DNA from: Rhynchopus sp. YZ270_cl-10
Taxonomy: Eukaryota
Length of the DNA: 64,000 nucleotides
Assembly (NCBI GenBank): GCA_964035575.1
Contig: OZ037836.1
Location: forward strand, 1,178,001 to 1,242,000
Reading direction: 5' to 3'
Position numbers and translations under genes: made by a program. The notes under the pieces were generated by a model, which was not told where the DNA came from, made no database searches, and worked only from the letters and a program-made list of their open reading frames with translations. Below, piece by piece: positions 16,838-64,000 of this stretch. Positions within the stretch are counted from its first letter, which is position 1, and each line of letters starts with the position of its first letter.

Positions 16838-17755
16838 TCATTGTGCGTGTCGACGTCGCTTCTGGCTTTGCTCGGGGGATTCGTCTCTGCTTCGTTTCGG
16901 ACGTGCTTCAACCACAAGCTTACTCAGCTTCTTGTCCTTCCTCACTTCGTTGGACACAACACTGCTGCAGCCGGAAAGGTAAATGCTCGTCAACGAAGTG
17001 CAGCGCGCAGCAAAATGCGTATTCTGAGTAAAAATATTCAGACGAATATGCGTCACATTGCTGAGTGCTGACAAATCCAGGGTCGTTAAGCTGCTGCAGT
17101 TCTGAAGGAAGCTCGCACCAACCTGCGTCACATTGCTGAGTGATGATAAATCGATAGTGGTTAAGCTCTCGCAGCCGTCAAGAAAGCTATCATTAATCGA
17201 CGTCACGTTCCTGAGTGGGGATAAATCCAGGGTCGTTAAGCTCCTGCAGTTCTGAAGGAACCACACACCAACCTGCGTCACATTGCTCAACCCAGAGAGG
17301 TCGACACTTGTCAACGAGGTGCACTCTCCCAGGAAGCAGTCTCCAATGTGAGTCACAATGGACTCAGCACTGAGATCAAGTCTCGTCAACGAAGTGCCTG
17401 ACAAGAAGTTATCCGGAATGACAGTCGCAACCTCCGCCTGCAGAAGAAAACACGCCACCTCAGGATCCCTCACACTCTCCAACTTCTCGGCTGTGATGTC
17501 GGTCACACCCAACGCATGAAGCTCTGCAATGGCTTCGTACTTCTTCGTCTTCGTGAGGATGATTGTGTCACCAGCACTCAGCTGCGTCATGTCCGCTCCT
17601 TCTCCCATCGCTTCGCCTCCGAAACTCATGCAAAAGCTGTCTTCAGGCAACCCCACTGCAGTCGCCACCTTCTGCCGCATCACCACAAGTGTGTCATCCT
17701 CACCCAGCTCGACCGTATGCTTCACTCCGTTCAACCCCTTGATAGTCAAATCCAT
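16838..17755 (-). CDS. UBL-LRR family copy 4
   Basis: Intact ORF, MDLTIKG N-terminus (upstream ATG at 17776). Confidence 0.9.
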   Translation of the reverse strand: MDLTIKGLNGVKHTVELGEDDTLVVMRQKVATAVGLPEDSFCMSFGGEAMGEGADMTQLSAGDTIILTKTKKYEAIAELHALGVTDITAEKLESVRDPEVACFLLQAEVATVIPDNFLSGTSLTRLDLSAESIVTHIGDCFLGECTSLTSVDLSGLSNVTQVGVWFLQNCRSLTTLDLSPLRNVTSINDSFLDGCESLTTIDLSSLSNVTQVGASFLQNCSSLTTLDLSALSNVTHIRLNIFTQNTHFAARCTSLTSIYLSGCSSVVSNEVRKDKKLSKLVVEARPKRSRDESPEQSQKRRRHAQ

Positions 17756-18236
17756 ATTTGTGTCGCTCTGTATCATAGGTAACGGAGGGTGATGGTGATG
17801 TGGAGAAGGTGAGGAGGTGTGGGGGAAATAAACAAGAGTTTCTTTTTTTTTTTTTTTTTTGGGGGGATGCGTCCAATGGAAATCACGTCAGTAGTCTAGA
17901 ATGTAGGTTTTATTATTTTGGCCTCGAGCAGGGTCGTGCACGGATTCAGGGTTTTTGGGAAATGTGGGGTCATGATGTCATTCCATTCACAGCGTCGACC
18001 TCCACCACACCAAAAACCACACACTTTTTGGGGTCTACCATATTCTGCGCAAGAATTACCCCCCGTTCATCAGATTCACGCTCCACCTTTATCACTTTTA
18101 TCACTCCAGCAGCACAAAAGTGTCACTTGTCGTTCCCTCACCCCCCTTCTTGTAGTTGTTTGATGCGTTGACGCTTCCACACGACGTGACACTTTTTGCT
18201 CACAAAGTAGTGTGCGTAAAAAAAAAAAGAACGCCC

Positions 18237-21717: not shown

Positions 21718-22912
21718 GTTACGCTTCTTCTTTTGAAACTTAACAAAAATAAAAAAAATAAAAAAAAGGGGGAGCGTGCTGCCGAAAGAGCTTCTACCCT
21801 TCAGAACGCCAGTTTGACATAATCTGTTGTGAATGAAATGATCAGCTCTTGTGTTGAATTCTGGAGATAAATACTTTTGTGTGTAAGGTGTCTGTGATGT
21901 AGGAGGGGCTAGGGGTCTGGGTGGGGGTAATTCGCGTATTCGAGAAGAAGTGTGGTGGGGGGAGTGAAGGAAAAATAATGAAGTTCTGGGTGGGGATTCT
22001 TTTGCAGCACAGAGTAAAATAACACAATGTGTGGAACGTCTTGCTCAGCACAGCTCTCCTCTCGCACCAAGTAGTAGTCTGTGCCACGGTGAGCAAGACT
22101 GTGCCCCTCTTCTTCTCCGAACCAGAGGACGCAAGCAGACATACTGCCAGAGACCCTCCACCTCGGGGAGGTGCTGCCCTGCCACCAACACACCACGTCG
22201 TCATTGTGCGTGTCTCTGTCGCTTCTGGCTTTGCTCGGGGGATTCGTCTCTGCTTCGTTTCGGACGTGCTTCAACCACAAGCTTCCTCAGCTTGCCGTTC
22301 CTCACTTCGTTAGACACAACACTGCTGCAGCCGGAAAGGTAAATGCTCGTCAACGAAGTGCAGAACGCAGCAAAATACGTAGCTCCAAAACCGCAGCACG
22401 TAGACGTTACGTTGCTGAGTGGCGACAAATCTAGGGTTGTTAAGCTCCTGCAGTTGGAAAGGAACCACGGACCAACCTCCGTCACGTTGCTGAGTGGTGA
22501 TAAATCGATGGTGGTTAAGCTCGTGCAGTCAGAAAGAAAGCTGCGATCAATCTGCGTCACGTTGCTGAATGGTGATAAATCCAGGGTTGTTAAACTCCTG
22601 CAGTACTCAAGGAAGCACATTCCAACCTGCATGACATTGCTCAACCCAGAGAGGTCGATACTTGTCAACGAGGTGCACTCTGCCAGGAAGCTGTCTCCAA
22701 TGCGAGTCACAATGGACTCAGCACTGAGATCAAGTCTCGTCAACGAAGTGCGTCCCAAGAAGCAATTCGGAACGACAGTCGCAACCTCCGCCTGCAGAAG
22801 CAAACACGCCACCTCAGGATCCTCCACACTCTTCAACTTCTCGGCTGTGATGTCGGTCACACCCAACGCATGAAGCTCTGCAATGGCTTCTTGCTTCTTC
22901 GTCTTCGTGAGG

Positions 22913-24967
22913 TAGGGGTCCGTTTTAGGTCTCTGGCAGGCCGGGCCTTCTTTCTGTGGCCTTCCCAACCAAAAGACCCCCAAAAAACACAGGTACCTGC
23001 TGCGTTTAATGGCACTTTACCCCAGTCCCTGGAACAGATCGGCAAGCCGACCAGCCCAGGTATGCATGCCAACACTACTGGGGGTGCACTGTTCGATAGC
23101 ATAAAAGAAAAGTCAAAAAGTCAAAAAGACAAGAAGGTCAAACAAAATAGGTACTTCGAACAGGGCTGACAGGAGGGGATTCTCACCCGAGGTTCGGTGC
23201 CTGTCAGGCTGCGATTAGTGGTTCTGGGTGATTCCCTTCTTCCTAGCCACCGTTACCGCGTTGCCCGCACCGTAAGAGAGTGGGGACGGTTCACGACCGT
23301 TCGTACGCGTCAGCAAAAGTAGGGGTCGGAGTCCAGGCCCGAACCGGAAACATTAACCTCCGTTTTTCGAAACATTAAAAAGTAAAAATGAAAAAGAAAA
23401 ATCAACAGCAAGAGCAGTGTTGCTGTAAAAGAAACAGCAGCACCGTCAGCTAACATGTCCACACAATATGGCAGACGGCCACACAAAATTCCCCTGATTT
23501 GTACAGAGAAAGTTGTAACTTCTTCCTTACAAGTAAGGGAGTGCCGGCAGGGAAGGAGTTACAACAAACAGTGAACAAACTCAAGTACCAGCCTTTCCGC
23601 GTAGCACAGACCCTACATTTGGTAGTTGGTCTGCCCTACTGCCTCATCTGCACCGTAGCTGGACGCCACGACGACAACTCCTTCATCTATCAACGTACCA
23701 AAGCACGTGAAAATAGAACAAAAACAAACAGATTGGAAAAACAACAGAGCATGTACCTGCAGATCCACAGTTGTTTCACGTACAGTGCATACACCCTGAA
23801 AGCTTAACCTCTTCCTTCTAGCACGGACGTTGGTCTGCCCTACTGCCTCTTCTGCACCGTAGCTGAGCCACGGCGACAACTCCTTCATCTATCAACGTAC
23901 CAAAGCACGTGAAAATAGAACAAAAATAAACACAATGGAAAAACAGCAGAGCATGTACCTGCAGATCCACAGTTGTTTCACGTACAGTGCATACACCCTG
24001 AAAGCTTAACCTCTTCCTTCTAGCACAGACGTTGGTCTGCCCTACTGCCTCTTCTGCACCGTAGCTGAGCCACGGCGACAACTCCTTCATCTATCAACGT
24101 ACCAAAGCACGTGAAAATAGAACAAAAATAAACACATTGGAAAAACAGCAGAGCATGTACCTGCAGATCCACAGTTGTTTCACGTACAATGCATACACCC
24201 TGAAAGTTTAACCTCTTCCTTCTAGCACAGACGTTGGTCTGCCCTACTACTTCTTCTGCACCGTAGCTGAATGCCACGGCGACAACTTGTACCCACCTGC
24301 GAATGAATGTTCGCAGATCCCTTCTTCTACTAACGTATAAAAACGTAAAAACAGACCAAAAACTACAACATGCCACACTGAATTAACGACAGAGCACGCA
24401 CCTGCAGATCCACAGATGTTTCACTACGGTGTACACAGCCTGAGGTTAAACACATAACACAAGAATTCTACTACGGCAAAAAGATGAAAACTGAACTGAA
24501 CTGAACAAAACTACAACACATCACACTGAATACACAAGAGCACGTACCTGCTGATCCACAGTTGTTTCACATACAGTGTACGCACCAACAAAGCAACAAA
24601 ACGTTCCCATGCGGTCAAACGACAACACAGGAACAGCAACAATATTCCGTCACCAGTAGAGACACCGGCAACGCTTCCTTCTTGTACCTGGGATCCCCTC
24701 ATCGGCATCAACACACTCCCAGTCACCGCACAGGTAACAGATCCTTGAAACCCCTCGAAGGGGTTTGCGTAGCCTACATAAGCTGGTGATCTGCCCGAAA
24801 TTGACTGTGATGTTGTGTTAATAACCAGGGTCCCCACATCGGCTTGTTCCTCCTCCGGTCCCGAGCGAATCCATCATTGGAGAGGCGGCCGCCCACGCTG
24901 ACTCAGTACCATGCGAACACGGCGTCCAGGGGCCCCACTTGGCGGTTGGTCAGACGTTAATTGCCCC
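22913..24967 (-). mobile_element. Non-coding retroposed element (element C, SINE/SIDE-like)
   Basis: TSD CTTCTTCGTCTTCGTGAGG at 22894-22912 and 24968-24986; no TIR and no credible ORF; HDV-like fold at the minus-strand 5' end. Confidence 0.8.
23625..24290. repeat. 202-bp tandem repeat inside element C (~3.3 copies plus degenerate copies)
   Basis: Direct repeat units; a related solo unit lies at ~51560-51735. Confidence 0.9.
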
Positions 24968-24968
24968 C
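24895..24968 (-). ncRNA. Candidate HDV-like self-cleaving ribozyme at the 5' end of element C
   Basis: P1 GGGGGC/GCCCCU; P2 CUGAC/GUCAG (extendable); short P3 with L3 GCCAAGU; P1.1 CC/GG; P4 GCCGUG-UUCG-CAUGGU; J4/2 ACUGA. P3 is imperfect. Confidence 0.6.
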
Positions 24969-26680
24969 TTCTTCGTCTTCGTGAGGATGATTGTGTCACC
25001 AGCACTCAGCTGCGTCATGTCCGCTCCTTCTCCCATCGCTTCGTCTCTGAAACTCATGCAAAAGCCGTCTTCAGGCAACCCCATTGCAGTCGCCACCTTC
25101 CGCCGCAAGCCCTCCACTGTGTCATCTTCACCCACCTCGACTGTGTGCTGGTTCGTGTCGAAACCCTTGATGTTCAGGTCCATGTCTTTGTTGTGGTTTT
25201 GTGTTCTGATCTCTGTGTGTGGTGGTGGGGTGTGGAGGACAACAAGCCTGCAGTCCTTTTCAAGAACCAGGCCAAAGAAAAACTGTCAGGAGAAGAGCCC
25301 CTCTCCCCGACCCACAACCCCCGACTTCAGATCTCTCACCTCTCCACCCCCTCTCCCTGAACCAGCGCCCTTCACAGACGTTCCCTCCTCACGAAAGCAA
25401 ACCCACCTTCCCCTGCCCCTCTCACGCACCGTTACCTGCCCCGTTCTGCACAAGAAACCCGCACAGCCTCCACGCTGTCTCCACCCACCCCACGCAAGGA
25501 AGAACGCCAAAGGTGCTCTCGTGCTGCAACCACAGACAAGCTGAAGTGCCAGACAAATGCACGAAAGCACCCCACCGCCAGACACAGCTTCCCCTCCCAT
25601 CATCACCACAAACGATGGGTGCACCTCCCACACCCAAGGACAGCCATCCACCAACTAAGACTTCCGCACAAGCACCCCAACCACAGCAAAGCGCATCCTC
25701 CCCCCTGAGTCCCCCCAGTCACACCATCAAGTGAAAGCACGCCATCAGTGCATCAGAGCACACTCGCCTCCGTCATCACACCTCACACCTCTTCGTGCAA
25801 GCTACCAAGAAGACAGTGAAAGACCACGTGGTGTCAACGAGTTCAGAGTGATGAATTACAGAAAAAAAGGGGGGTTGGGCGGGGAGGTACGTTGTAATGA
25901 ATAAGACATGGGTTTTTGTGGGGATTCTTTTGCAGCACAGAGTAACATAATTGTATTTGCTTCTAAACTACTCTCACTAGATAGCACGATTTTGTCTTCA
26001 CAGGATCCTTAAAAGAGAGCAAATAGAAGGAGTACGTGAATATTATTCCAAAAAATTTATTTTTCCTTCCTTCAAAACTTCACACACAACGCTTTTTACA
26101 TCCGAGCATCTAATACTCTAGTCAAGCAAGAGACCACAAGAACTCATCACTAGGCTCCAGCAAGAACTTAATCTCTCACCTAGCTCAACCAAGAACTTCA
26201 CTCCAGCAGGACCCCCATACGAGACGTCACAAGAACTCGTCACCTGGCTCAACCAAGAACTTAATCTCTCACCAGGATCATCTAAGAACTGTACTCACGC
26301 AGGGTTACCAAGTATAAACTCATCAGTGTTCGCGGCACAGAAGAACAAACAAAGTGCAAACGGCACATAGAGAAACGATAAACATGAAACATATCCGAGC
26401 ATCAAATACTCGATCCCCACCAGAGACCATAAGAACTCATCACCCATGAAAGACTAGCCCCCTCGGCACTCAGTCTCACACCAGGCTCAACCAAGAACTT
26501 GACTCAAGCAGGACCACCAGGTACAAATTCATTAACACTCATGACACAGCTCAACGACTGTGTACTGACCAAGCAGGTTAGCCAACAAGGCATTAAAATT
26601 TTTGAAGAAGAAAGCAGGGAGTGGAGGGAGGGAAAGCTTTTTGAATAAAAAATGAACGAAGCACAAAAACAAGCGCGTGT

Positions 26681-32319: not shown

Positions 32320-32570
32320 CCATACCCTGCCGTACCCTCCCATACCGCACGTTTGCCTTTTTTTTGGGATAATCATGTCCCATACCGTGCCATGCCCTGC
32401 CATACCGTGCCAAACCCTGCCATACCGTGCCACACCCTGCCATACCCGTGCCATACCGTGCCATACCCTGCCATACCCGTGCCAACCCGTGCCATACCGT
32501 GCCATACCCTGCCATACCATGCCAAACCCTGCCATACCGTGCCAAACCGTGCCATACCCTGCCATACCCT
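32320..32570 (+). repeat. Degenerate ~10-bp minisatellite (GCCATACCCT/GCCATACCGT)
   Basis: Direct reading. Confidence 0.9.
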
Positions 32571-32599
32571 CCCGGTGCTGGGTACTGGGTACTGGGTAC

Positions 32600-33416
32600 T
32601 GGCTAATGGCTAATGGCTAATGGCTAATGGCTAATGGCTAATGGCTAATGGCTAATGGCTAATGGCTAATGGCTAATGGCTAATGGCTAATGGCTAATGG
32701 CTAATGGCTAATGGCTAATGGCTAATGGCTAATGGCTAATGGCTAATGGCTAATGGCTAATGGCTAATGGCTAATGGCTAATGGCTAATGGCTAATGGCT
32801 AATGGCTAATGGCTAATGGCTAATGGCTAATGGCTAATGGCTAATGGCTAATGGCTAATGGCTAATGGCTAATGGCTAATGGCTAATGGCTAATGGCTAA
32901 TGGCTAATGGCTAATGGCTAATGGCTAATGGCTAATGGCTAATGGCTAATGGCTAATGGCTAATGGCTAATGGCTAATGGCTAATGGCTAATGGCTAATG
33001 GCTAATGGCTAATGGCTAATGGCTAATGGCTAATGGCTAATGGCTAATGGCTAATGGCTAATGGCTAATGGCTAATGGCTAATGGCTAATGGCTAATGGC
33101 TAATGGCTAATGGCTAATGGCTAATGGCTAATGGCTAATGGCTAATGGCTAATGGCTAATGGCTAATGGCTAATGGCTAATGGCTAATGGCTAATGGCTA
33201 ATGGCTAATGGCTAATGGCTAATGGCTAATGGCTAATGGCTAATGGCTAATGGCTAATGGCTAATGGCTAATGGCTAATGGCTAATGGCTAATGGCTAAT
33301 GGCTAATGGCTAATGGCTAATGGCTAATGGCTAATGGCTAATGGCTAATGGCTAATGGCTAATGGCTAATGGCTAATGGCTAATGGCTAATGGCTAATGG
33401 CTAATGGCTAATGGCT
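32600..33416 (+). repeat. Satellite (TGGCTAA)n, ~116 units
   Basis: Perfect 7-bp repeat. Confidence 0.98.
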
Positions 33417-33478
33417 ACCCGTGCCATACTGTGCCAAACCCTGCCATACCATTTCTTTTCAATGGCCAGCTGTACTGT

Positions 33479-33772
33479 ACTGTGTATACTGTGTATACTG
33501 TGTATACTGTGTATACTGTGTATACTGTGTATACTGTGTATACTGTGTATACTGTGTATACTGTGTATACTGTGTATACTGTGTATACTGTGTATACTGT
33601 GTATACTGTGTATACTGTGTATACTGTGTATACTGTGTATACTGTGTATACTGTGTATACTGTGTATACTGTGTATACTGTGTATACTGTGTATACTGTG
33701 TATACTGTGTATACTGTGTATACTGTGTATACTGTGTATACTGTGTATACTGTGTATACTGTGTATACTGTG
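33479..33772 (-). repeat. Satellite (CACAGTATA)n on the minus strand, ~33 units
   Basis: Reverse complement of the 2730-3384 array. Confidence 0.98.
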
Positions 33773-40258: not shown

Positions 40259-42116
40259 GTCTTTGTTGTGGTTTTGTGTTCTGATCTCTGTGTGTGGTGG
40301 TGGGGTGTGGAGGACAACAAGCCTGCAGTCCTTTTCAAGAACCTTGCCAAAAATAAATGTTGGAGAAGGGCCCCCTCTCACCTCCCCTGCCTCACACAAC
40401 CCACAGACGTTCACCGCAACACATATCGCCCCTCCCTACCCTCCCTGGTAACGGCACATACGTGACCCTCCCTCAACATCGTGTCGAGAGCATCTGTCCC
40501 CACTGGTCGCCAGCACCTCTCTCTGGTGGAGCCACGCCAGCAGTGATGTGCCACGTCATGCTGTCGGTGGTGGCACACATCTGATGCTCGTGTCCATCCG
40601 CGTTCCGAACCTGCCCCCTCCACCCACGTCCCTTCCTCTGCAGCAAAGTGCACAGCACCACACACCACACGTCACGTGTTGACACCATGTGGCTACGTGC
40701 CTTTTGCTGCACACACACCCCTCCCTCCCTCCCTCCCTCCCTTCCCTTTGCCTCGTGCATGTGAAGATCAAGATCGTGTGATGTGTAAGATGGAGAGTGA
40801 AAGCGAGAGCGTAATGGTCTGCAAAAAATATAGTAGATTCGATACTTTTTTTGCTGTTGTCATTTATTTATTGTTTTCACTTTGGCACTGCTTTTTGTAC
40901 ACAAAAGGCCTGTTTTCAGCCACACCAATCCAGGATGCCGTAATTTTTTTGGAAACTTCGCTGTATTAGTGTAGACTGATGCCATATCAGTTCCGCAGTC
41001 ACCCCCTTCCACGTCGTCATTGTGCGTGTCTCTGTCGCTTCTGGCTTTGCTCGGGGGATTCGTCTCTGCTTCGTTTCGGACGTGCTTCAACCACAAGCTT
41101 CCTCAGCTTCCCGTTCCTCACTTCGTTGGACACAACACTGCTGCAGCCGGAAAGGTAAATGCTCGTCAACGAAGTGCAGTTCTCAACAAATTCTGTAGTA
41201 TCATTCCAAGTCAAACCAATCGACGTCACATTGCTGAGTGCTGACAAATCCCGGGATGTTAAGCTGCTGCAGTTCTGAAGGAAAAACGGACCAACCTGCG
41301 TCACATTGCTGAGTGGTAATAAATCGATGGTGGTTAAGCTGCTGCAGCCGGAAAGAAAGGCGTGCTTAATCTGCGTCACATTGCGGAGTGGTGACACATC
41401 CAGGGTTGTTAAGCTGCTGCAGTTCCAAAGGAAGCATGCGCCAACCTGCGTCACATTGCTCAACCCAGAGAGGTCGACACTTGTCAACGAGATGCAGTGT
41501 GACAGGAAGCTACCTCCAATGTGAGTCACAATGGACTCAGCACTGAGATCAAGTCTCGTCAACGAAGTGCCCGACAAGAACTCATTTGGAATGACAGTCG
41601 CAACCTCCGCCTGCAGAAGCAAACACGCCACCTCAGGATCCCTCACACTCTCCAACTTCTCGGCTTCGATAAACGTTTTTAAAAATAGGATGGAGCACCC
41701 CGGTCCGAAAAGGAATGCAGCCACCCCTGGCTTCAGGCTCGCGAACCCAGCGTTGATGTAACACAGGGTTTCACGGGCCAAAAACCAGAAAAAAAATGAA
41801 AAATTGAGGGTTCAACGACTGCGCCAACTGGTCTCATGCGCCGTTGAACCAACTTAAAATCTAGAATCTTGTGTCAACTTGTAAAGAAAAGCAATGAATA
41901 TTAAAAATTACCGGTTTCAGGCGTGGCGTACACGTCTGCTGCCATCTACGCTGGGATAGCAGTCCGGCTTGAACTTGGGGTCCAACAACAGTGCCAAGTG
42001 GACTTATGCGTCGCTGTGTCAACTGAAAAACAATGAAAAACAAGAATGTCGTTGAGGAAGATTGAAATGCATGAAAAAACAAATGCATGGAAAAACAAGA
42101 AGAACAAGGTAAATCT

Positions 42117-43098
42117 CTACAGAGGGTGCTGTCCTAGCTTGTCCTCTTTCGTTGTCTCGCCCACACTAAGCTTCTCAACGGCCGTGCAGGCGAGCTTTGT
42201 GGCGTTCACGTTGTTACTGCTGTCGATGTGCACCAACGTGATGCTTCGGGTCGCTCTCAGCTTGTCAAGCTCACCCCGCGCCTCTTTCTGGAGGTGGGCG
42301 ACTGCCGCGTATGGTCTGCAGTGCTCGTTCACCTGGTCAACCACGGTTCTACTGGATCCGTAGATGTTCAGTGGTGTGGTGTCTGTGACGCTCTTCAGGT
42401 ATTCGAGGCACATCAGCAGTCCTTTATACTCCGCGACGTTCAGGGGTGTGTCCGCCAGGCGACTACTGGCTGTCCACCGCACCTCGCCGTCTTTCTCGAG
42501 GCGTGCTCCAGCGCCCGATCCCTGGCAAGTGTTTTTCTTCACCCTCGCCCCCGGCTGCCTCACGTTGCAGTATCCGCCGAAGAAGATGCGAGTGTGTCCG
42601 GTGGGTTTCTTAGGTTTGCGTCGATCCTGCTTCTGCTGCTTCTGCTCAGCAGCCAAACGGATGTGCTTCGCAATTCTGTCTGCTCTCTCCTGTTTGCAGT
42701 CCTCTTCTAGGGGTGGGAGCTCTGTGTTCGTCCAGGATTTGTTTCCGTTGCAGAGGGTTGGCAGGGACCGGATCGTCTTGAGCACCTCAGCTGGTTCGGT
42801 GAGGATGGGTCGTCTCGTGATCGCTAGGGTTCCCCACTTGATGCCTAGGTCTAATGGGGCGAACACTTTGCTCCTGGGGTAGATGGTGCCCGAGAAGAGG
42901 TACGCGTTTGCTGCCACTATCTTTGCCTTAGCCATCCAGTTGCTGAACCAGGTGATTTTGTCGGTGATCATGGAGCTCTCTCGGGAATTGGGTTCCTCTG
43001 TGGTGAGCTTTGCTCCTGTGTGCGCTTCGAAGTCCAGCGCCAGCTCCAGGTGCGAGACGTGCTGTGATTTCCCATTGGACACCGTCGGCCACTTTAGG
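42117..43098 (-). CDS. Frameshifted C-terminal part of element A ORF2 with degenerate RNase H-like domain
   Basis: WLE/LKWP aligns with WLAALRWP of element B, implying a frameshift near 43098. RIFFGG..GSGAGA..NVAEYKGL..IYGSSRTVVDQV..NVNATKLA follows the RNase HI (RVT_3-type) pattern. Confidence 0.8.
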
Positions 43099-46000
43099 CT
43101 CCAGCCACTCCTTGAGTGCGAGGTATCCTTCCGCTTTGTACGGCCACGCGTCTGGCACCTCGTCAGGAAGTACTCCTATGTAGGTCTCGTATGGGCCTTC
43201 TGGTTCCCATGTCCAGGGAAAATTGTCCATTTGGCTCGTCTTCGTTGTAGTGGTACCGCGTTTTCTCTTGTCCTCCCTCTCTAGGGCGATGTCTGAGTAC
43301 ATGAGAAGCAGCAGCTCTAGGGCTTCTCTGTTCGGCACTTCCGGAATCATCTGGAAGCCGGCGGGGAGAATGGCGTTGAGGCGCAGGCATTTCGGCCAGC
43401 TTTCTCTTACTGCTGGATCGGACACTCCTGCGTATTTGTGCTGTTCGCGTATGTGTGCGGTGTGGCTGCATTGTTCCCACATGTGTTCAAAGTCCTCCAC
43501 ACCTGTGCCGCAGTGCTCGCACGTGTCACTGGTGCTCATCTTCATTCTTTTGCGCCTGTCCTGTGTGAGCTCCGCTCCTGCAAGAATGTTCCTCATGTAC
43601 CCTGCACGCAGTGGATCTGTGTTCTTGTAGCTGTTCCACACGGCGTTGATTGTGCGATAATCGATGCCATCTTTAACCCCTTGCATGTCCTCCCTCCTTG
43701 TCTCGAGTCTACGGCAAAAATCGTCCCTGATACCGTCTCGGAGTTGGTGTCGAAGGAGGTCACCCTCGGGTTCGTCGAGGTTCATCTGTGTTGTGTGCGG
43801 GGGCAATAGGGTGTTGTTCTCCCAGCGCCAGTTCATGGATTGGGTGGTGCGGAGGAGGATGTCTACCGGTCCACAGTATTTTACTCTCGACGTCCGCTTC
43901 AGGATACGGATCTCGTCTATTAGGGTTCTAATCTCCTGGTTCTTCCCCATGGTGTAGAGCGCGAGCAGGCGTTGGTACTTGAGGTAAGATGTTGGGTCTG
44001 TCCGGTGTAGCGGGTTCAGCACTCCCCTCACTATTTCACTACATCTGCTAGGTAGGCCCCTCCAAATCGCCGCCGTCACTGCTTTGGTGAGCCTTCCAGC
44101 GGTGGTGGACAGCGGCTCGTACGTCTCGCAGCCGTAGAGTGCCATGGGTATTATTTTTGTCGCCACCAGTTCGGCTCTGCCTTCAAAGGGGACGTTGAGG
44201 TGAGGGATACGTCGCGCACATGTCTCAGCTTTGCGCACTCGCTTGTCCAGCTTTGTCGCTGCTTCCTTTTTCTTGGCTACGGCCAGTCTGATCACTGCGC
44301 CGAGGTTGTCCAGTTCCTTCTTTTCCTGTCTCAGCTGGGTGTCTCCGAGCATGAGCTCCAGCTTTTCGGTCTTGGCTGTCGAGAAGGAGAAACTACTTCC
44401 GTACGTGAGGTCAGTCTTGGTGGCGAAGTCGTGGGACACTGTGAGGCCTTTCCTCAATTGTGCGGTGTTGTTCGAGGTCATGGTGGTGTCGTCCGCGTAC
44501 AGGCTTGTCCGACATCTGGCTTCCGTCCGAACCGCCGCCTCCCACACTGCTAGGAGGGCGTTCAGCAGGATAATGCTCAGCGCACATCCCTGCAGAATGC
44601 CATTGTTCGCTTTGAACTCCTCACCGACCGTACCGTATAGTTTGAACCGCCTCTTCAGGTCCCTGTACATGCTCTTGAGGGGCCGCGTGATCTTCATGTC
44701 GATCCCCATTTTCTCCACAAGACTGAAGGTTATGTCCCACGGTATGGTGTCGAAGCATTTCTTAATGTCCAGAAATACTCCTCGCAGCGTGTTCCCCGAC
44801 ACCATTGCTTTTTCGACCAGGAGTGCGGTGAGGTAGAAAGCGTCACGTGTTCCGTGCCCAGTCCTGAAGCCGTGCATGGATTCCGGTGCCCATGTCTCTT
44901 GCCACACCATCAGGCTCGTCAACCTTGTCTTTGCCCATAGCCGATATACCGCCGACATCACGGAAATTGGTCGGTGGTCGAGTGGTTGTGGGTCCTCCAC
45001 CTTGGCGATCATGCTCACGGTCGCGTGGAGGAGAGCTTCTGGCCATATGCCCGTCTCTTCTACTTGGTTGAGGATTGATGCCAGCCTGTCGAAGATCCCC
45101 GTTGGGAGAAGCGCAAGTTCTTCTGGGTGCCAGCCGTCTGTGCTGGGGGCCTTCCCCTTCGGCATGCTCTCGGCCACGGCTTTCAGCATCCTTCCGGTGA
45201 GGGGTTCTACGTGCATCGGCCGTTGAGGTATGTGTGTGCCAAACCTTTCCTCGAACGCTTCCCACGTGGGTGTGTCACTCAGGGTGTTGTGCTTTTGGAG
45301 TATGGGAAGCCATGCCTCACGCAACCACGTGTCCATGTCCTCCACATTCGCGGTCTCTTCCGTCCCGCGCTTCATCGTGTTGCACCGCACTTTGGCTCCG
45401 TTGAGGCGCTTGTAGATAAGCCCTGGTGTGGTGTGCCATTGCGTGCGTATCATACGATATCTTTGCGTGGCCCTGTCCCTCTCCAGGTTCTTTCTGGCAG
45501 TTTCGAGTCTCTGGTGCAGGCGCTGTATCAGCTCCAGTGTCGTGCTGGCCTGCGGCTCCTCCTCTGGGGTAGCGTCGAGAATGCTCACCAGCCCTGCCTT
45601 CGCTTTGTCCCACGCCTTGCGTGCGCTGGGTGTGAGGGCTCCTTTGGTGCGTAGAGTGTTGCCGACCTCTGTTAGTCTGCGGATCGTCTTCCGGATGCGC
45701 GTCATCTTGAGGGTCTCTCCTGCGTCGCCTTCGCGAGACTGTCTGCTGCACAGCCAGGTGCGTCGAAGTTTGGGTGGTCGGCCTTTGCGGAAACATGCTG
45801 CTGAGTTGTCGTCTCCCTGCCGTGCCCAGAAGTTGGTCGCATCCTCATTCCATGCTTTCCACTTGTCCTCTACCAATGTGCTTGTGTGCCATTGTGCTTT
45901 GGAACCATCGCAGATCTCTTCAGCCTCCTTTTCCAGGTCTGCCTTCGTTTTCTTCCTGCTCAGTTCATCCTGTTGTAGCATAGGGGCCCTTTCCTGCTTG

Positions 46001-47556
46001 AGCACACGCTGCCTGAACGTCATATTCTCAAATGTCGCGTCCAGGGGGATGTGTGAAGGTATTCCGGCCGTCCCCGTTTTGCACCCTGCCAGCGCAAGCA
46101 CCGCAATCTGGTTGGCCAGGATGATGTCAATTCGTGAGCACACACTTTTGGCTTCAGACTTTGTGCTCTTACCGATGTGGGTGTGCTCTGGCTCTTGGTT
46201 GGCCCAGCCCGCGGCTCGTTCGGCACAGTCCGTCCATCGTTCTGAGCTGATGGCTAGGGATATTGCTTCGCTTGAGCTGGGTTCTGGGTGGCTGTTGCAA
46301 TCCCCGAGGATAATCGCTGGTACGTCCCCTATCTCTGCTTCTGCAAATACATCCGATAGGAAGCTCTCGCGCTCTTGCTTTGCTTGCGGGGAGTTGCCGA
46401 CTTTCGCGTATATCACGAATAGGTGTAGAAAATGGTTCCCTGCCCCATGTGCCACCTTTGCGTGCAGGTAACGCTTTGAGTCCCAGAGTCTCTTTGCTCG
46501 TTCAGTATCTCTCCTGACCACACTTGCTGGTATGCCTCGTTTCACCATTAGGCCCACCCCCTTGTGTTCTCCGTAGCTCTGTTGTATTGCGTTTGGAAGT
46601 AACTTTACTGGGCACCCCCAGAGACCTGTCCAGCCTTGTTCATACAGCGTTCGGGAAGCTTGGGCCTGTTTCTTCTGTGTGAGCCGGGTCTCCTGCAGTG
46701 CGACTATGTCGTTGTCCCAACTCCACACCTCCTCCTGGTGAGCATTCATTGAGGTGATGTTGGCAGTACGTATGGACAGGTTTGGAGTGGCCCGGGCAGC
46801 GCGGCGTCGCTTTCTCTCCGTCTTGGTACGTTTCCGTGAGCGAGACACTGCGATATTCGTGTCCAGGTTCTCCAGCGTGACACAGCGGTTGCCCTCTGCC
46901 TGCGTCGTTGCAATCAGCGACAACAGCCCCTCGGTTGCTTTGAGGCGGTCGAAGTGCTCGGGCCTGTACGTGAGCACAACTGGGTTCGATGTAGGTGGTC
47001 CGCCGACGTGGCTAAACCGTTTCGCTCTGGCATCCAGTACCCAGATGGCCCTGTCGAGTATGCTTGCCGCAGTCTGTAGCTCACGTTCTCCACCGTACGT
47101 TCCTTGCATTCTCATTTTGGCTAGGTGTTGCGTGTAGGTGGAAGGTTCGTTTGCCTCAGGAGAGTAGCTGTCAGCATAGAGGTCACTGTCGTCGTTTTGC
47201 AGTACGTCCACCACCCGTTGTCGCAGTGAGTTCGTTGTCCACCCCTCGCTCTGCTCAGCTATGGCAGAGAATAGGCAGTCCCCGTCTGGCGCTACTGCTA
47301 TCCTTGTAGAGTTGATACTGCGGGCTGTTGCGTCCAACCACTCCTTGTGGTCGGTGATGGCCCTCAGTGGGTTCACGGGATTGTCGTTGTTTTTGGGGTA
47401 GGCGCTCCTACCTATCCCCGGTTCTATGTGCGATTCTAAGTACGTATCTAATCTAGTGGGGGGGGTGAGGTGGGGGAGTGGAGGGGTTGGGTCTAGAATC
47501 AAACGAACAGGAGATCGTTGATCTCGTCCGCAATCGCCTTCGACTCCTTCTTCCAC
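43099..47556 (-). CDS. Element A ORF2: OTU protease - APE endonuclease - reverse transcriptase - Zn finger
   Basis: OTU: VAPDGDCLF (Cys 47275-47277), YGGEREL, EHFD. APE: TANI, ALQET, LGDCN, SRIDII, PSH. RT: RPIS, HGFR, LDIKKCFD, GILQGCALS, YADD (~44490). Zn finger CEHC..H..C. Confidence 0.95.
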
Positions 47557-49030
47557 CGCTCCATCTCCTCCGTCCCCTCCGTCACCTTTCCCGCCCCCTT
47601 TCCCATCTTTCCGCCGTCCTTCGACTTGCCCTTTTTGCGCTGGGGGGGGCCCGACCCGAAGATGTCGTCCATTGTGCTTCCCTTTCCCGCGCCGGACGAC
47701 TTTGACCCCTTTTGCTTGTTGGGGGTGGTTGGTGGCGACAGTGTCTCGGTCGCGGTTTTCGGCTTTACCGTCTCGTTGGCCTTCACATCACAGTCCTTCG
47801 TGTCCTCCGTGGTGCTTTGTTGTTGTTGGAGCGGAGAGGGTGGGTGAGCCGGTTCCGCGTTGGTGGTAGGCTGGAGTAGCCTGAGGAGGTGGGCCAGGTG
47901 CGCGTCCGTCGCCTCCTGTCGTGCCTCCGCTGCACACTGCCGAGCCACCACCGTCGCCAGCGCCGCGTTCATCTCCTCCTGAGCTTTGTTGTTACTGATA
48001 ACTGCAGAGAGGATTTGCTCCCGCTGAGCTTCCGCGTTTGTCGCCAGTTCTTCCGCTCTGGTGGCGTGGCTGTCCATCTTGGACAGTTGGAGCACTTGAC
48101 GCTCTAGGAGCGCTTCAATGCCCTTGCCCATTTGTAGAAGAGGGGTGGTGATAGAGGTGAGGTCGGCCGGTGTTGCGTTGTGGTTCTGATGCTGTTGGGG
48201 AAGTTGGTGCTGAACTACGCGCTGCATCCATGCCAGCTCCAGCTTCTGTCCCTGTTCGAACAGCTTTTTGCCTCTGTCCGCGCCGTACTCTGCTACAAAT
48301 TCTTGGCTGGTGTATTTTACCTTCCTGTTTCTCTCTGTGGGGTCAGGTACCCGTGTAGGAAGCTGTTGGTGGGTGTCTGCTGTGGTGGTGACGGTGCTGG
48401 TATCTCTTGCTACTGCAGGGAGGATTGACACCACTAGGCTCTGCCACTTGACGCTGCTGTGCGGTGGCTGCGTCTCTGCGCGCACCACGAGGGTCTTTTC
48501 CCCCGTTCTGCCCTTGCTGAGCAGCGTCACCACCCGCGCCCCCTCCCACTTCATCGCCTTCAGTGCCGCGATGCAGTCCTGCTTCGTTGCGGGGGGAGGA
48601 ACCGGCCTGAGGTCGAAGAGCTGGGTGGTGGTGTGCGTTGTGGTGCTGTCGGGTATCTCGAACGTGAATGTGGGGGCGTCATCCATCGCCTCCGGGGCAC
48701 CACCGCTGCTACCTCCCCTTAGCCTACCCAGCTCCCACACGTTGCAGTGCGTCCTGCACATCCGGAGCGACTCCTTGTCGCTCATGTCCCTCCCGTTGAT
48801 GGTAAGGCGGTGCACGTCCCTGCGTCCACCTGTCTTCGCGCGCACTGCCGCCTTCAGGTCAGCCACCGAGTCCGTGTCGCTGACGTCCACTGTCACTGTC
48901 TTTCCAGTCAGCGTTCGCACAAAAATCTGCCTTTTTACCTCTTCATTTTCTTCTTCTTTTTGTTCCGAGTCTTTGCCGCAGTCCTCTGCGTTGCCCGGGG
49001 TCACCTCGTGGAGGTGCTCGGTAAAAACCC
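47499..49030 (-). CDS. Element A ORF1: N-terminal ubiquitin domain (48711-48929, ends RLRGG), coiled coil, basic tail
   Basis: QIFVRTLTGKTVTVDV...DLKAAV...RL...GRLRGG aligns with ubiquitin; Q/A/E-rich heptad region; the frame is open to the element 5' end and in frame with the host UBL. Confidence 0.88.
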
Positions 49031-49031
49031 C
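48965..49031 (-). ncRNA. Candidate HDV-like self-cleaving ribozyme at the 5' end of element A
   Basis: GGGGUU-UUUA-CCGAGC-ACC-UCCACGA-GGU-GACCCC-GGGCAA-CGCAG-AGGA-CUGCG-GCAAA-GACUCGG. P1, P2, P3/L3, P1.1, P4 and the J4/2 C (48975) are in HDV order. Confidence 0.78.
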
Positions 49032-50035
49032 ACTCTCCAACTTCTCGGCTGTGATGTCTGTCACACCCAACGCATGAAGCTCTGCAATGGCTTCGTACTT
49101 CTGCGACTTCTTCGTGAGGATGATTGTGTCACCAGCACTCAGCTGCGTCATGTCCGCTCCTTCTCCCATCGGTTCGCCTCCGAAACTCATGCAAAAGCCG
49201 TCTTCAGGCAACCCCATTGCAGTCGCCACCTTCCGCCGCATCACCGCAAGTGTATCATCCTCACCCAGCTCGACCGTATGCTTCACTCCGTTCAACCCCT
49301 TGATAGTCAAATCCATATTTGTGTCGCTCTGTATCATAGGTAACGGAGGGTGATGGTGATGTGGAGAAGGTGAGGAGGTGTGGGGGAAATAAACAAGAGT
49401 TTCTTTTTTTTTAGGCCTCGAGCATGGTCATGCACGGATTCGGGTGTTTGCACGATGGCGAAGCAATGGGAGGTACATGTAACTATAGCTACATATAGCA
49501 TTACATGTCTTGATGGGATTATCCGGAAAGACGGGACATAGTTACATTTTCATTTTTCATTAGGAATTCATGTACTTTTTGCAGAGTATAAATATTCCCC
49601 TACGCCGTCTGCTTTAATCGTATGCAACGAAATAAAGGTGGGCAAGAGAGAGGAGCCTAGGGGGAAGTGTTCCACTCTTGAGTATCAGGTGTGTCGGCAG
49701 AAGGTCTGATTCAAAGAAGACTTGGTGAAGCAGGGTGGGGAACAATTCTGCAATTCGTTGTTGAGAACTGCGAGTCGAAATAACATTGTTCTCGGGGTGT
49801 AGTGGTGGGGGTCATAACTAAACAGCACCAAACTTCAGGCACAATTTGGTGCTAGTGCATGTAACATTATGCTAATATTACATGCTACATGTAACATTAC
49901 AAGGTCTGACTGGTGTGGGTAGGGGCTTTGGTGGGTTACGGTCAAGATTATCCGAACCAGAGGACGCAAGCAGACATACTGCCAGAGACCCTCCACCTCG
50001 GGGAGGTGCTGCCCTGCCACCAACACACCACGTCG

Positions 50036-50875: not shown

Positions 50876-51994
50876 CTGTTTGTTGTGGTTTTGTGTTCTG
50901 ATCTCTGTGTGTGGTGGTGGGGTGTGGAGGACAACAAGCCTGCAGTCATTTTCAATGAAGGGTTGAAGGGCAGGGGTTCTTTGAGTACAATCGTACCATC
51001 GTGGGTTGGGCACATATACCCAGGTACCGACGTGCGGTTTTGTTAAATTGTTGAGTAGTGTAGTTGCCTCGGTTGTGTTGCCACAGTTGTGCAATCTCCA
51101 CTTTGTATCTCTCTGTTTTGTGCAGGTGTTTTCAATTGGGGGTGAGAGTACGCAAGAGACAACAAACAGTCATAAGGGGAGAGGTCTTTTGGTATGCTAC
51201 TTTTGTCCGAATATTTGTGAGAACAGTATTTAGAAGTGGTTGGTGATAACTTACTCGGATTTTCCGTTTGAGAGGAAGATAACCGGAGCCACGGCACTCT
51301 TCGTGTGCTGTGCCACGTTCTCCCCCACATTCCTTCCTCCCAGCCTGGCAGCGAAACAGCCGCACTGACACTAGAGCATCATATAAGCTGGCCTGACTGC
51401 AAAACAAATGAAAGAAGCAATGCACAAAACCCTAACATATGGCGTGCTAATAAAGAAGGGCGACCACCTTGTGTGTTGCGCTTCCTGTCCCCATGCACCA
51501 TCCCCGAATATGCTTTCAAATGACATAGGTTCGTGATACTGGATAAACAACAGCGCACGTCAGTTGTCTCACGTACAGTGTATACACCCTGAAAACGTAA
51601 CCCCTTCCCTCTGGCACAGACCCCACCTTGGGCAGATGGTCTGCCCTACTGCCTCTTCTGCACCGTAGCTGAGTGCCACGGTGACAGCTTGTACCCACCT
51701 GCGAAAGAATGTTCGCAAGGTCCCTTCTTCTACTAAGGGAAAACAAACTTTTCGTCTGCGTGCGCGTCGGGACGTCCCCCAGAAAAACCCAGGCAGGCAT
51801 GCAAAAAAAAGTTTGTTTTAATGGTGTGATTTTCCTAAAAATTAGGTGTAAATTGGGTACTTCTTGGGTCCTTCTTGGGTATAGTGATTTTCCTTAGGGC
51901 ACTTCCTTAAGGAAAACGTGATCTTTTTCCCGAGCTTTCCCTGTGGTTAGTAGCCTTGTTTTCGCAAAAATTTTCTCAAAATCCGGGATTGGCA

Positions 51995-52632
51995 CCCAGT
52001 ACCCAGTACCCAGTACCCAGTACCCAGTACCCAGTACCCAGTACCCAGTACCCAGTACCCAGTACCCAGTACCCAGTACCCAGTACCCAGTACCCAGTAC
52101 CCAGTACCCAGTACCCAGTACCCAGTACCCAGTACCCAGTACCCAGTACCCAGTACCCAGTACCCAGTACCCAGTACCCAGTACCCAGTACCCAGTACCC
52201 AGTACCCAGTACCCAGTACCCAGTACCCAGTACCCAGTACCCAGTACCCAGTACCCAGTACCCAGTACCCAGTACCCAGTACCCAGTACCCAGTACCCAG
52301 TACCCAGTACCCAGTACCCAGTACCCAGTACCCAGTACCCAGTACCCAGTACCCAGTACCCAGTACCCAGTACCCAGTACCCAGTACCCAGTACCCAGTA
52401 CCCAGTACCCAGTACCCAGTACCCAGTACCCAGTACCCAGTACCCAGTACCCAGTACCCAGTACCCAGTACCCAGTACCCAGTACCCAGTACCCAGTACC
52501 CAGTACCCAGTACCCAGTACCCAGTACCCAGTACCCAGTACCCAGTACCCAGTACCCAGTACCCAGTACCCAGTACCCAGTACCCAGTACCCAGTACCCA
52601 GTACCCAGTACCCAGTACCCAGTACCCAGTAC
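51995..52632 (+). repeat. Satellite (CCCAGTA)n, ~91 units
   Basis: Reverse complement of the GGGTACT array. Confidence 0.98.
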
Positions 52633-60950: not shown

Positions 60951-61167
60951 CATACATGGTAAGCGAACAAAAAATTCGCTTTATTCGCTTTTGGTTCGCT
61001 TTTTTATTCGCTTTATTCGCCGGCGAATAAAGCGAATAAAGCGAACCAAAAGCGAACGAAAAAGCGAACAAAAAGCGAATAAAAAGCAACGTATTTTTTG
61101 TCAAGTCTAGTGTGTCGAGTCTAGTCCCCCGAGATCCCCCAATACCCGCAACGACGCCAAAATAAGG

Positions 61168-62157
61168 CTACTGTACTGTACTGTACTGTACTGTACTGTA
61201 CTGTACTGTACTGTACTGTACTGTACTGTACTGTACTGTACTGTACTGTACTGTACTGTACTGTACTGTACTGTGCTGTACTGTACTGTACTGTACTGTA
61301 CTGTACTGTACTGTACTGTACTGTACTGTACTGTACTGTACTGTACTGTACTGTACTGTACTGTACTGTACTGTACTGTACTGTACTGTACTGTACTGTA
61401 CTGTACTGTACTGTACTGTACTGTACTGTACTGTACTGTACTGTACTGTACTGTACTGTACTGTACTGTACTGTACTGTACTGTACTGTACTGTACTGTA
61501 CTGTACTGTACTGTACTGTACTGTACTGTACTGTACTGTACTGTACTGTACTGTACTGTACTGTACTGTACTGTACTGTACTGTACTGTACTGTACTGTA
61601 CTGTACTGTACTGTACTGTACTGTACTGTACTGTACTGTACTGTACTGTACTGTACTGTACTGTACTGTACTGTACTGTACTGTACTGTACTGTACTGTA
61701 CTGTACTGTACTGTACTGTACTGTACTGTACTGTACTGTACTGTACTGTACTGTACTGTACTGTACTGTACTGTACTGTACTGTACTGTACTGTACTGTA
61801 CTGTACTGTACTGTACTGTACTGTACTGTACTGTACTGTACTGTACTGTACTGTACTGTACTGTACTGTACTGTACTGTACTGTACTGTACTGTACTGTA
61901 CTGTACTGTACTGTACTGTACTGTACTGTACTGTACTGTACTGTACTGTACTGTACTGTACTGTACTGTACTGTACTGTACTGTACTGTACTGTACTGTA
62001 CTGTACTGTACTGTACTGTACTGTACTGTACTGTACTGTACTGTACTGTACTGTACTGTACTGTACTGTACTGTACTGTACTGTACTGTACTGTACTGTA
62101 CTGTACTGTACTGTACTGTACTGTACTGTACTGTACTGTACTGTACTGTACTGTACT
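61168..62157 (+). repeat. Satellite (CTGTA)n, ~197 units
   Basis: Direct reading; one variant unit. Confidence 0.98.
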
Positions 62158-62751
62158 CCCCGAGAAAACCACTTTTTTGGGATAATTCAGCGCATTAGAA
62201 AATTTTGCGACCCCGCTCGGTTAGAACCGTGACTCTGTGTGACCCTTACCACCGTGAGAGTAAACACCAAAAAACGGGGAAAATAAAAATAAAAAGGGGT
62301 ACCCCCTCCAAATTCCCCGTGGTTCGCCCGTATGTCTCCCGCGGTTGTACCGCGTACAACGGTTCACACCATTTTGGCCATTTTTTCACAAAAAACCAAT
62401 TTTTTTTAATCAGGAAAGTATCTGTAGAGGTCGTCAGGTGGTTTAATGGGATATTTGGGTGATCCCCAGGGCGATTTGCGGCCAGGTACGACCTTTTTGG
62501 TGGGTTTCTTCACCTAAATTTCAAAAAAATGGGTTTGTGACAGTATTTGTACAGGGATTTAGACACCACTGCGCCCCCTAGAGGGGGGGGAAGCTGAGAA
62601 AACCGTATTATTTTGTCTGTTTTGTGCATAGCTGAAAGGGAAAAAGAAAGAAAACTTGAAAGATGTACCGCAACACATCTTCACCACCATCGCATGAGGG
62701 AACCAGAAAAAGGCGGACAAAACCCACAAACCAAATTCAACCCACGTTCAT

Positions 62752-63972
62752 TCAGCCCTTTTTAACCCTCTTGCCAGGACGCACAACAGCGGTGTCCCTC
62801 TTCACTCGTGGCGTCTGTTCCTCCTCACCTTCATCCTCGCTGCACGCAGGCGAACCCTTGCTCTCTGCGAACCCTGCTTCCCTTTCCTCAGAGGGCTCTG
62901 TGTCTGCATGAAGACGCTTCCGCCTGCACCCTTCTTTCTGCACGGTTGCGGGGTCGGGCACGTTGTCAGTCTCGCATATCAGACCGTGAATCACATTTGT
63001 CGGCAAACCCACTTCTTTCGCAAGCAACCTCCTCACAACCAGAGCGTCCTTGCTCAACCCTGAGGCATCGATTCTTGTTAACTCTGAGCAGGACTCGAAC
63101 AAATACTCCCCAATACTCCTGACCCCGCTCAACGCAGACAGGCCATCGACGACTTGCAAGCGTAAGCAATGCCCAAAGAAGTACTTCCCGATGGTAACGA
63201 CACTCCTCAGCCCCGAAAGACAAACTCTCTTCAACGACGAGCAGTTGTAAAGAAATCCGTCAACTATTTTGGTGACATTGCTCAACCCCGAAAGGTCCAC
63301 GGACGTCAAATGGCTGCACTTGTTAAGAAAATCCCCCGCAATCACAGTCAGGCAGCGAAACACAGAGAGGTCAACCGTTCGCAATGCAGAAGAACCAAGA
63401 AAGTATTGGTCTATCATAGTGACACTGCCGAACCCCGACAGGTTGATGCTCTCCAATCGTTCGGCGAAGGGGATGAAGCGAACTCCTATCACAGTCACAT
63501 TGCACAACCCTGAAAGGTCAACCTCTGTCAACTGTGGGCAATTGTACAGGAAGTTTGCCCCTATTTCGGTGACAACCGACACAGCACTAAGGTCAAGTCG
63601 CGTTAACGCACTGCGTTCCAAGAAGTGAAAAGGAATCACAGTCGCAACCTCCGCCTCCAAAAGCAAACGCGCAACGTCCGGATTCTTCACAGTCGCCAAC
63701 CTCTGTTTTGTCAGGTCTGTCTCGCCCAATGCGTGAAGTGCTGCAATGGCAGCAGACTTCGTTGTCCTCATGAGCATAATCGTGTCCCCAGCACTCAGCT
63801 CCTTGATGCCCTCCTCGTCACGCAGCACCTCCCCTCTGAAAGTCATCTGAAAGCTGTCTTCCTGCAACCCTGCTGCAGACGCCACCTTCAGACGCAGGTG
63901 TCCAAGTGCATCATCCACACCCACCTCCACCACATGTTCCTTCTCGTCAAAATCCTTGATCGTGATATCCAT
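62752..63972 (-). CDS. Divergent UBL-LRR paralogue (copy 11, 406 aa)
   Basis: MDITIKDFDEKEHVVEV UBL; conserved AIAALHALG..VARLLLEAEVATVIP linker; 25-aa LRRs; acidic/basic tail. Confidence 0.9.
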   Translation of the reverse strand: MDITIKDFDEKEHVVEVGVDDALGHLRLKVASAAGLQEDSFQMTFRGEVLRDEEGIKELSAGDTIMLMRTTKSAAIAALHALGETDLTKQRLATVKNPDVARLLLEAEVATVIPFHFLERSALTRLDLSAVSVVTEIGANFLYNCPQLTEVDLSGLCNVTVIGVRFIPFAERLESINLSGFGSVTMIDQYFLGSSALRTVDLSVFRCLTVIAGDFLNKCSHLTSVDLSGLSNVTKIVDGFLYNCSSLKRVCLSGLRSVVTIGKYFFGHCLRLQVVDGLSALSGVRSIGEYLFESCSELTRIDASGLSKDALVVRRLLAKEVGLPTNVIHGLICETDNVPDPATVQKEGCRRKRLHADTEPSEEREAGFAESKGSPACSEDEGEEEQTPRVKRDTAVVRPGKRVKKG

Positions 63973-64000
63973 TTTTGTGTTTTTGTGTTTTGTGCTGTGT

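Follow-up and report, generated by a model that had tools for sequence, protein, structure and literature searches.

A target-specific LINE from Rhynchopus with a predicted HDV-like ribozyme, a ubiquitin-like ORF1 leader and an OTU domain in ORF2

Introduction

Trypanosome retrotransposons of the ingi/L1Tc group have an insertion hot spot in the RHS protein-coding multigene family, and a similar habit is seen in the element described here, a long interspersed nuclear element (LINE) that splits a member of a host gene family in Rhynchopus sp. YZ270_cl-10. It occupies positions 41666-49030, minus strand, of a 64,000-nucleotide stretch of contig OZ037836.1 (1,178,001 to 1,242,000); this whole stretch is called the window, and all coordinates refer to it. 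L1Tc combines a hepatitis delta virus (HDV)-like ribozyme with a 2A peptide (PMC5814959; PMC3894237). L1Tc/NARTc and ingi/RIME, which the window element resembles in outline, are LINEs with an apurinic-type endonuclease (APE), a reverse transcriptase (RT) and an RNase H; an HDV-like ribozyme at the 5' end cuts their RNA at +1, a 2A peptide near the N-terminus separates their proteins, and they have a short non-autonomous partner (PMC5814959). The window element differs from L1Tc/ingi in its two open reading frames (ORFs), in a ubiquitin-LRGG leader and an OTU domain that replace the 2A peptide, in a degenerate RNase H-like domain and in the lack of a poly(A) tail.

Initiation without an AUG is known from R2. 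That element is also a target-specific LINE freed from its host co-transcript by an HDV-like ribozyme (PMC4035085), and differs from the window element in its restriction-like endonuclease (RLE), single ORF and ribosomal DNA target. A deubiquitinase-type domain before the APE is described for the ORF2p of Symbiodinium necroappetens (an N-terminal OTU) and of Dualen/RandI (a Josephin domain); these proteins carry 2A-like peptides, and the accessible part of the preprint describes no ubiquitin leader, ribozyme or target site for them (PMC13405545, 2026 preprint). Ubiquitin/SUMO proteases are found in further mobile elements, Ulp1 in NeSL and Utopia and OTU or Ulp1 in Ginger1, Helitron and Mutator, which are RLE-type or DNA elements for which these sources, as far as accessible, report no encoded substrate (PMC4640811, PMC2836005). 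The known LINE targets listed in the available text of PMC4640811 are RNA genes, transposons and repeats only, and the Diplonema papillatum genome paper, in its accessible part, lists LINE ORFs without domain detail (PMC10161547). The OTU proteases of turnip yellow mosaic virus (TYMV), arterivirus and Crimean-Congo haemorrhagic fever virus (CCHFV) cut their own precursors as well as host conjugates (PMC4822132).

A literature search, with Repbase, Dfam and most subscription journals outside its range, did not turn up any LINE whose ORF1 is described as bearing a ubiquitin leader. An earlier note on this DNA knew of no element that unites all its modules; joint RNA and protein processing is already known from L1Tc, and an OTU on an ORF2p has been mentioned in print. 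LINE proteins are not known to undergo proteolytic maturation, and what the OTU, Ulp1 and Josephin domains of many transposons do is an open question. Because a candidate substrate and a candidate protease lie here in one small unit, two purified domains would be enough to test it. Our reading of the locus, to which we give about an even chance, is that an APE-type LINE inserts at one site of a host gene family, that its RNA is freed by the ribozyme, that ORF1 is translated without an AUG, and that the leader would be clipped off mainly by host deubiquitinases (DUBs).

Results and Discussion

A LINE at one site of a host gene family

41666..49030, minus strand: full-length APE-type retrotransposon without long terminal repeats (LTRs), 7365 bp, lacking a poly(A) tail; defined by its boundaries and by other copies
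49031..49050: 20-bp target-site duplication flanking the 5' end; its base 49031 doubles as the first G of the ribozyme fold
41646..41665: 20-bp target-site duplication flanking the 3' end
49031..49337, minus strand: 5' part of the split host gene, with a ubiquitin-like N-terminus that lacks GG; the window copy has it in frame with ORF1
41017..41665, minus strand: 3' part of the split host gene, with BspA-type leucine-rich repeats (LRRs)

The element is bounded by a 20-bp direct repeat, as the earlier note had proposed, and its insertion site occurs once, uninterrupted, in nine other copies of the host gene (11 matches in the window altogether). The G at 49031 can be assigned either to the duplication or to the element, which lies on the same strand as the gene it splits. 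Pfam matches to Exo_endo_phos and RVT_1 are above cut-off, with the APE upstream of the RT in one ORF, as in APE-type LINEs; the 3' end holds short T and A runs only, with no poly(A) or simple-repeat tail. Within the 64-kb window there is no second copy, no self-match of the element and no LTR. Other copies are present among protein records (P numbers) and in contigs assembled from four sequencing runs, two of them 5'-truncated (P0013 and P0008), and the nearest named relatives are diplonemid (Diplonema papillatum, a D. japonicum transcriptome and Flectonema neradi); viral contigs gave weak RT matches only and no relatives. The element is real and intact as a family, beyond chance, and the modules singled out by the earlier note are kept in other copies under apparent purifying selection.

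The host motif stands directly before the element in six of the eight protein records that reach the 5' junction (P0036, which is the window copy, P0017, P0014, P0004, P0013 and P0008), P0013 and P0008 having a common truncation point that may reflect one event; the other two, P0035 and P0010, begin inside the ribozyme and have no readable flank. Two contig junctions, free of gene-calling bias, carry variants of the same motif, and a head-to-tail arrangement with another copy is seen at one contig junction and in P0004 and P0008. Every readable junction thus falls at one site of the host ubiquitin-like/LRR gene family, and a target preference is well supported by these sequences, from few junctions. 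For the design of insertion tools, an APE element that is target-specific and has a precise 5' end is of interest. Contig depth, which does not equal copy number, is far higher over the flanks than over the element and suggests a very large host gene family.

Four protein records, a class biased towards open frames, are in frame with the host motif, whereas hand reading of the two contig junctions shows one G fewer, which puts them one base out of frame. We therefore rejected in-frame fusion to the host AUG as a rule; the mixed frames would permit read-through from that AUG in some copies only.

A predicted ribozyme at the 5' boundary

48963..49031, minus strand: HDV-like ribozyme fold (sequence and fold), with the C at 48975 as catalytic candidate and a cut predicted immediately 5' of 49031

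The HDV-like fold that had been noticed at the 5' boundary was borne out. Positions 49031-48963 match the Rfam family RF02682 (HDV-F-prausnitzii) with an E-value of 1.8e-5, and the double pseudoknot is complete, with P1 (6 bp), P2 (5), P3 (3), P1.1 and P4 (5) all pairing and a C in J4/2 at 48975. A descriptor of the fold, composed after the site had been seen, found one site on both strands of the window and none in 15 shuffles of the element. The strongest argument that the ribozyme is real is that its predicted cut coincides with the element boundary. The sole variant listed within the fold in the run contigs, at 48985, falls in the P4 loop. Six related loci gave no Rfam match at E-values up to 0.5, so that the ribozyme could not be followed into distant relatives. 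Taken together, sequence and fold indicate that the ribozyme likely cuts the element RNA out of a host transcript.

Summed contig depth, read with the same reservation as above, is severalfold greater over the fold than over the ubiquitin domain in three of four runs, and contigs depart from the element at 48948 or 48968, with the 3' end behaving alike. Both observations hint at a short non-autonomous partner.

ORF1 opens with a diverged ubiquitin domain

47499..49031, minus strand: ORF1 frame, 510 codons, open across the ribozyme from the first base onwards
48711..48932, minus strand: diverged ubiquitin domain (Pfam), codons 34-107 of the ORF1 frame, ending RLRGG (48725-48711)
47499..48710, minus strand: ORF1 body, with a possible RNA recognition motif (RRM)-like part, a predicted coiled region and a basic tail (weak match to ORF1 of metagenome locus L016)

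A ubiquitin domain with an intact RLRGG is fused to ORF1, as the earlier note had it: the Pfam profile scores 37.7 bits against a cut-off of 25.4 on the element-only protein P0010, and the LRGG end is in frame with a passenger, as in polyubiquitin and the ubiquitin-ribosomal protein fusions. The domain is nevertheless strongly diverged. It matches human ubiquitin at 28 of 75 positions (37%, hand count on the alignment), and the changes I44T, H68W, V70L, I36G, L71G and M1R remove the canonical surface; the Ile44 and Ile36 patches are the commonest DUB contacts (PMC4822132, accessible part). It differs from the known fusion precursors in this low identity, in the missing Met1, in the altered patches and in lying within a retrotransposon. 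Judged by sequence, the leader is ubiquitin-like and not ubiquitin proper. Derivation from the ubiquitin-like domain of the split host gene was rejected, since the leader lies inside the duplication, the two are 21% identical and the host domain lacks GG.

The first in-frame AUGs of ORF1 are at 48785 and 48761, within the ubiquitin domain, and at 48686, nine residues past the GG; the sole AUG upstream of the domain opens an out-of-frame, three-codon frame and is absent from the second ORF1 subfamily. Between the two subfamilies the leader is identical at 72 of 74 residues, the downstream parts at 114 of 163 and 67 of 240, and ORF2 is 99% identical; the leader identity could partly reflect recombination. 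The leader DNA differs among contig variants at five synonymous sites and one replacement (two replacements counting P0010 and P0014), and no indel is listed within the first 390 nt in the contigs of the four runs. Because synonymous changes exceed replacements, in small numbers, the leader is probably translated and selected. With no AUG ahead of the ubiquitin domain, a cut after LRGG would give ORF1p a defined N-terminus, as the earlier note had suggested, and the sequence evidence makes removal of the leader after the GG a good probability.

The ORF1 body gave no Pfam match, residues 108-275 had no usable match in the ESM Atlas, and the likeness to the ORF1 of L016 is weak (E 0.016). A single-sequence model of the ubiquitin domain and the ORF1 N-terminus reached a predicted local distance difference test (pLDDT) score of 41.5 and was discarded.

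ORF2 carries an intact OTU ahead of the APE

42928..47787, minus strand: ORF2 frame (open frame), -1 relative to ORF1, overlap about 290 nt
46948..47358, minus strand: OTU protease domain (Pfam and alignment), with D-G-D-C (Cys at 47277) and H-F-D (46956-46948)
46102..46716, minus strand: APE, Pfam stretch; the domain starts near 46780
44308..44979, minus strand: reverse transcriptase (Pfam RVT_1)
43453..43647, minus strand: zinc-binding region (Pfam zf-RVT, below cut-off)
43099..43100: two bases absent in the window copy, through a defect or an assembly error; other copies keep an unbroken frame
42189..42542, minus strand: RNase H-like domain (Pfam RVT_3), three of four acidic catalytic residues absent by eye

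The OTU domain scores 32.9 bits against a Pfam cut-off of 23.3, and its catalytic Cys and His-x-Asp align with those of OTUD3 and OTU1. The earlier note's placing of an intact OTU at the front of ORF2 stands, with the reservation that ORF2 has no AUG upstream of the Cys, either in the window copy or in a contig of run X1. ORF2 would accordingly need a -1 frameshift or non-AUG reinitiation. A TTG overlaps the ORF1 stop, and a GTG lies at 47376. No 2A-like motif was seen before the APE of the window element, which has two frames rather than a single ORF.

The two bases missing at 43099 are present in contigs of all four runs, and P0002, P0011 and P0017 read through, so that only the window copy has its RNase H-like tail out of frame. 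The acidic residues of this tail were compared by eye in P0002, P0011 and P0017 with those of P0197; the domain stays in frame in other copies despite their loss, and the P0042 family has them. In P0058, this family's OTU (88% identical) ends an unrelated-looking frame of 623 residues that has no APE and is probably a broken copy.

OTU domains, 2A-like peptides and Gly-Gly sites among ORF2 relatives

Among the best 150 of 22,717 ORF2 matches, an OTU precedes the APE in seven distant clusters and one near copy. Both the Cys and the His motifs are present in six of the distant clusters, P0080 lacking the N-terminal part, and the domain is intact in relatives of about 30% identity, diplonemids among them. 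The APE start is present in 43 of the 150, and 33 of these have at least nine residues upstream: by hand count 18 are 2A-like (the GEAxxPGP form, which we take to be such), nine have an OTU (two by its C-terminal end only), six have neither and none has both. In one of the six, an LRGG comes after a stretch that looks Josephin-like by eye. A quick RT tree restricted to search hits (35 of 39 rows, four dropped for short or irregular RT matches; long-branch warnings) joins a 2A element and an OTU element as sisters with a Shimodaira-Hasegawa-like approximate likelihood ratio test (SH-aLRT) value of 99, and the two labels interleave. These comparisons suggest that the OTU is probably a swappable module, present across the clade, which takes the place held in sister elements by a 2A-like peptide. 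Strict mutual exclusion was rejected, since the Symbiodinium ORF2p has both.

Two observations were made by eye. Residues 8-40 of P0107 hold a GG site and then a stretch before the OTU that is presumably akin to a ubiquitin-interacting motif. Residues 1-190 of P0049, from the Flectonema neradi transcriptome, look Josephin-like, without a Pfam match, and are followed by LRGG and IRGG before the APE.

The OTU may mainly strip host ubiquitin off element proteins, stalled ribosomes or repair factors, with the leader unrelated to it. We regard this as a serious possibility, somewhat short of even, and compatible with leader removal by host enzymes. It agrees with the P0107 stretch, with the OTU or Ulp1 domains of Ginger1, Helitron, Mutator, NeSL and Utopia, for which no ubiquitin leader is reported in the text available, and with the preprint's linking of ORF2p DUBs to relief of 2A stalling (PMC13405545, in part). 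The positional conservation of GG sites at the OTU border argues against it, pointing to processing: five of the seven OTU relatives with at least 35 upstream residues have a GG 30-37 residues before the Cys, which suggests Gly-Gly sites in the elements' own proteins as targets of these OTUs. The remaining two have a GG at 58 and none, respectively. A conserved GG downstream of the OTU was looked for in the relatives compared and rejected.

Is the leader a substrate of the OTU?

The 32 best of 80 metagenome loci were translated and searched. Locus L014, whose RT region is 25% identical to that of the window element, encodes ORF1 repeats ending PLxGG and LGRLRGG; its ORF2 opens with a 2A-like motif, and no OTU was found in six frames. 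The leader region of this type is present in seven of ten homologs, with both tails kept in all seven, and no OTU was found in the ten proteins. Repeats of the L014 family escaped Pfam, and a profile comparison with ubiquitin aligned the tail only (probability 9%), so that they were recognised as ubiquitin-fold by fold search alone: a model of P0223, built on a seven-row alignment and with a pLDDT of 60-78 across the repeats, matches both linear diubiquitin (E 6e-7) and ISG15, and its body matches human ORF1p 2ykp (E 2e-4). L014 (3221-4786), P0223 and P0230 thus have ORF1 leaders with two, possibly three, ubiquitin-fold repeats, P0230 with 270 further residues, unassigned, upstream of them. 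The common LGRLRGG tail hints at a shared origin with the window leader. Ubiquitin-fold ORF1 leaders ending in LGRLRGG in two distant protist LINE families point to a way of starting a protein without an AUG that we did not find in print.

At locus L016, conversely, two OTU-APE-RT elements were found with no LRGG leader seen, and no ubiquitin domain was found in the 150 best ORF2 matches and 35 cluster members (the ORF1s of diplonemid OTU elements lie outside this comparison). The leader of L014 and the OTU of L016 show that each module occurs alone. The earlier note's matched substrate and protease therefore stand as real, conserved modules, but that they form an obligate pair is not supported. 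Because a more degenerate leader is kept elsewhere without an OTU, host enzymes may well suffice for the cut; judging from these sequences, the chances for and against are about equal.

The claim in its full form is that the element's OTU cuts the leader off ORF1p, in trans or in cis within a frameshifted polyprotein, the diverged ubiquitin being its private substrate. Such matching is not the likeliest reading, and we hold it to be possible but doubtful. It is favoured by the alteration of the patches that host DUBs contact while RLRGG is retained, by an OTU intact at about 30% identity, and by the GG at the OTU border in five of seven relatives, a site absent from the window family. The ORF2 frame, at -1, moreover extends open into ORF1 for about 95 codons; three G-GGA-AAG heptamers are in phase, which may simply reflect a Gly/Lys-rich tail, and P0017 reads ORF1 and ORF2 as one chain, which may be an assembly slip. 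Against it stand the separate occurrence of both modules, the normal requirement for ORF1p before and in excess of ORF2p (PMC3894237, accessible part), and the fact that linear cleavage counts as a special trait of certain OTUs, such as OTULIN (PMC4822132, accessible part).

The L014 family also bears on the idea that the leader is never cut, ORF1p starting at the AUG nine residues past the GG or retaining the leader as a folding, binding or degradation tag. The Met at 48686 is retained in both subfamilies of the window element, a Met directly follows the GG in six of seven L014-family proteins, and the last strand of the fold is doubtful. The excess of synonymous changes within the leader, the invariant GG tails on diverging domain bodies and the LRGG without Met in P0228 make an uncut leader unlikely.

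A model for expression of the element

Under the scheme that we prefer, in which host enzymes do most of the clipping, host transcription would, to judge from orientation, run into the element, and the ribozyme would cut 5' of G49031 to yield a unit-length RNA. ORF1 would begin at a non-AUG codon within the ribozyme or close to it, though some copies could instead use the host AUG on RNA that is uncut and in frame; whichever start is used, a cut after the GG would leave an ORF1p starting at Ser. ORF2 would then be reached through a -1 frameshift or non-AUG reinitiation. The OTU is probably both a Gly-Gly processing protease and a deubiquitinase; it may help in the leader cut and is probably not required for it.

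Several points weigh against this scheme. The Rfam score, 37.2 bits, is below the gathering score of 44. The altered Ile44 and Ile36 patches favour a dedicated protease over ordinary host DUBs, and the buried Leu69 of ubiquitin is a Glu here, so the leader fold may be imperfect. L014 itself is 5'-truncated, its family could encode an unrecognised protease (the P0230 N-terminus has no Pfam match), and the ORF1s of L016 may be incomplete. As to the modules ahead of the APE, the 2A rows are often short of upstream sequence, and the Symbiodinium ORF2p carries OTU and 2A together (PMC13405545, in part). Finally, beside the GG positioned before the Cys in relatives, the window family has none within 70 residues of the OTU Cys, leaving the ubiquitin site only.

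A wider reading is possible but, taken as a whole, doubtful. The element would combine a private ubiquitin-like substrate, the OTU that cuts it and a ribozyme, and would borrow transcription, and sometimes an AUG, from the targeted host gene family, thereby obtaining a unit-length RNA and a defined ORF1p while lacking its own promoter and start codon. Across this protist clade, polyprotein processing would rely on interchangeable devices: ubiquitin leaders, OTU, Josephin-like domains and 2A peptides.

Other features of the window

The split gene belongs to an array of at least 11 ubiquitin-like/BspA-LRR genes (8161-17887, 22201-25544, 31062-51169 and 63419-64000) that is hypervariable at LRR positions. 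A second LINE of the same broad group, 5'-truncated, lies at 8793-11257 on the minus strand and is 23% identical to P0002 over 573 residues; it sits in another host-gene copy, in the same orientation and at a different site, between 18-bp duplications at 8775-8792 and 11258-11275. A third host-gene copy holds a 2-kb insert (about 22915-24968, minus strand) with a 19-bp duplication, internal repeats of about 180 bp, no long ORF and a 5' end that is pseudoknot-like by eye, with no Rfam match. The end of this insert recurs in P0014 and in loose contig ends near 49110, each time at the same host position, so it may represent a second site-specific family. Long perfect arrays with units of 9, 14, 14 and 10 bases occupy 2600-3400, 32400-33500, 51900-52600 and 61100-62200, respectively.

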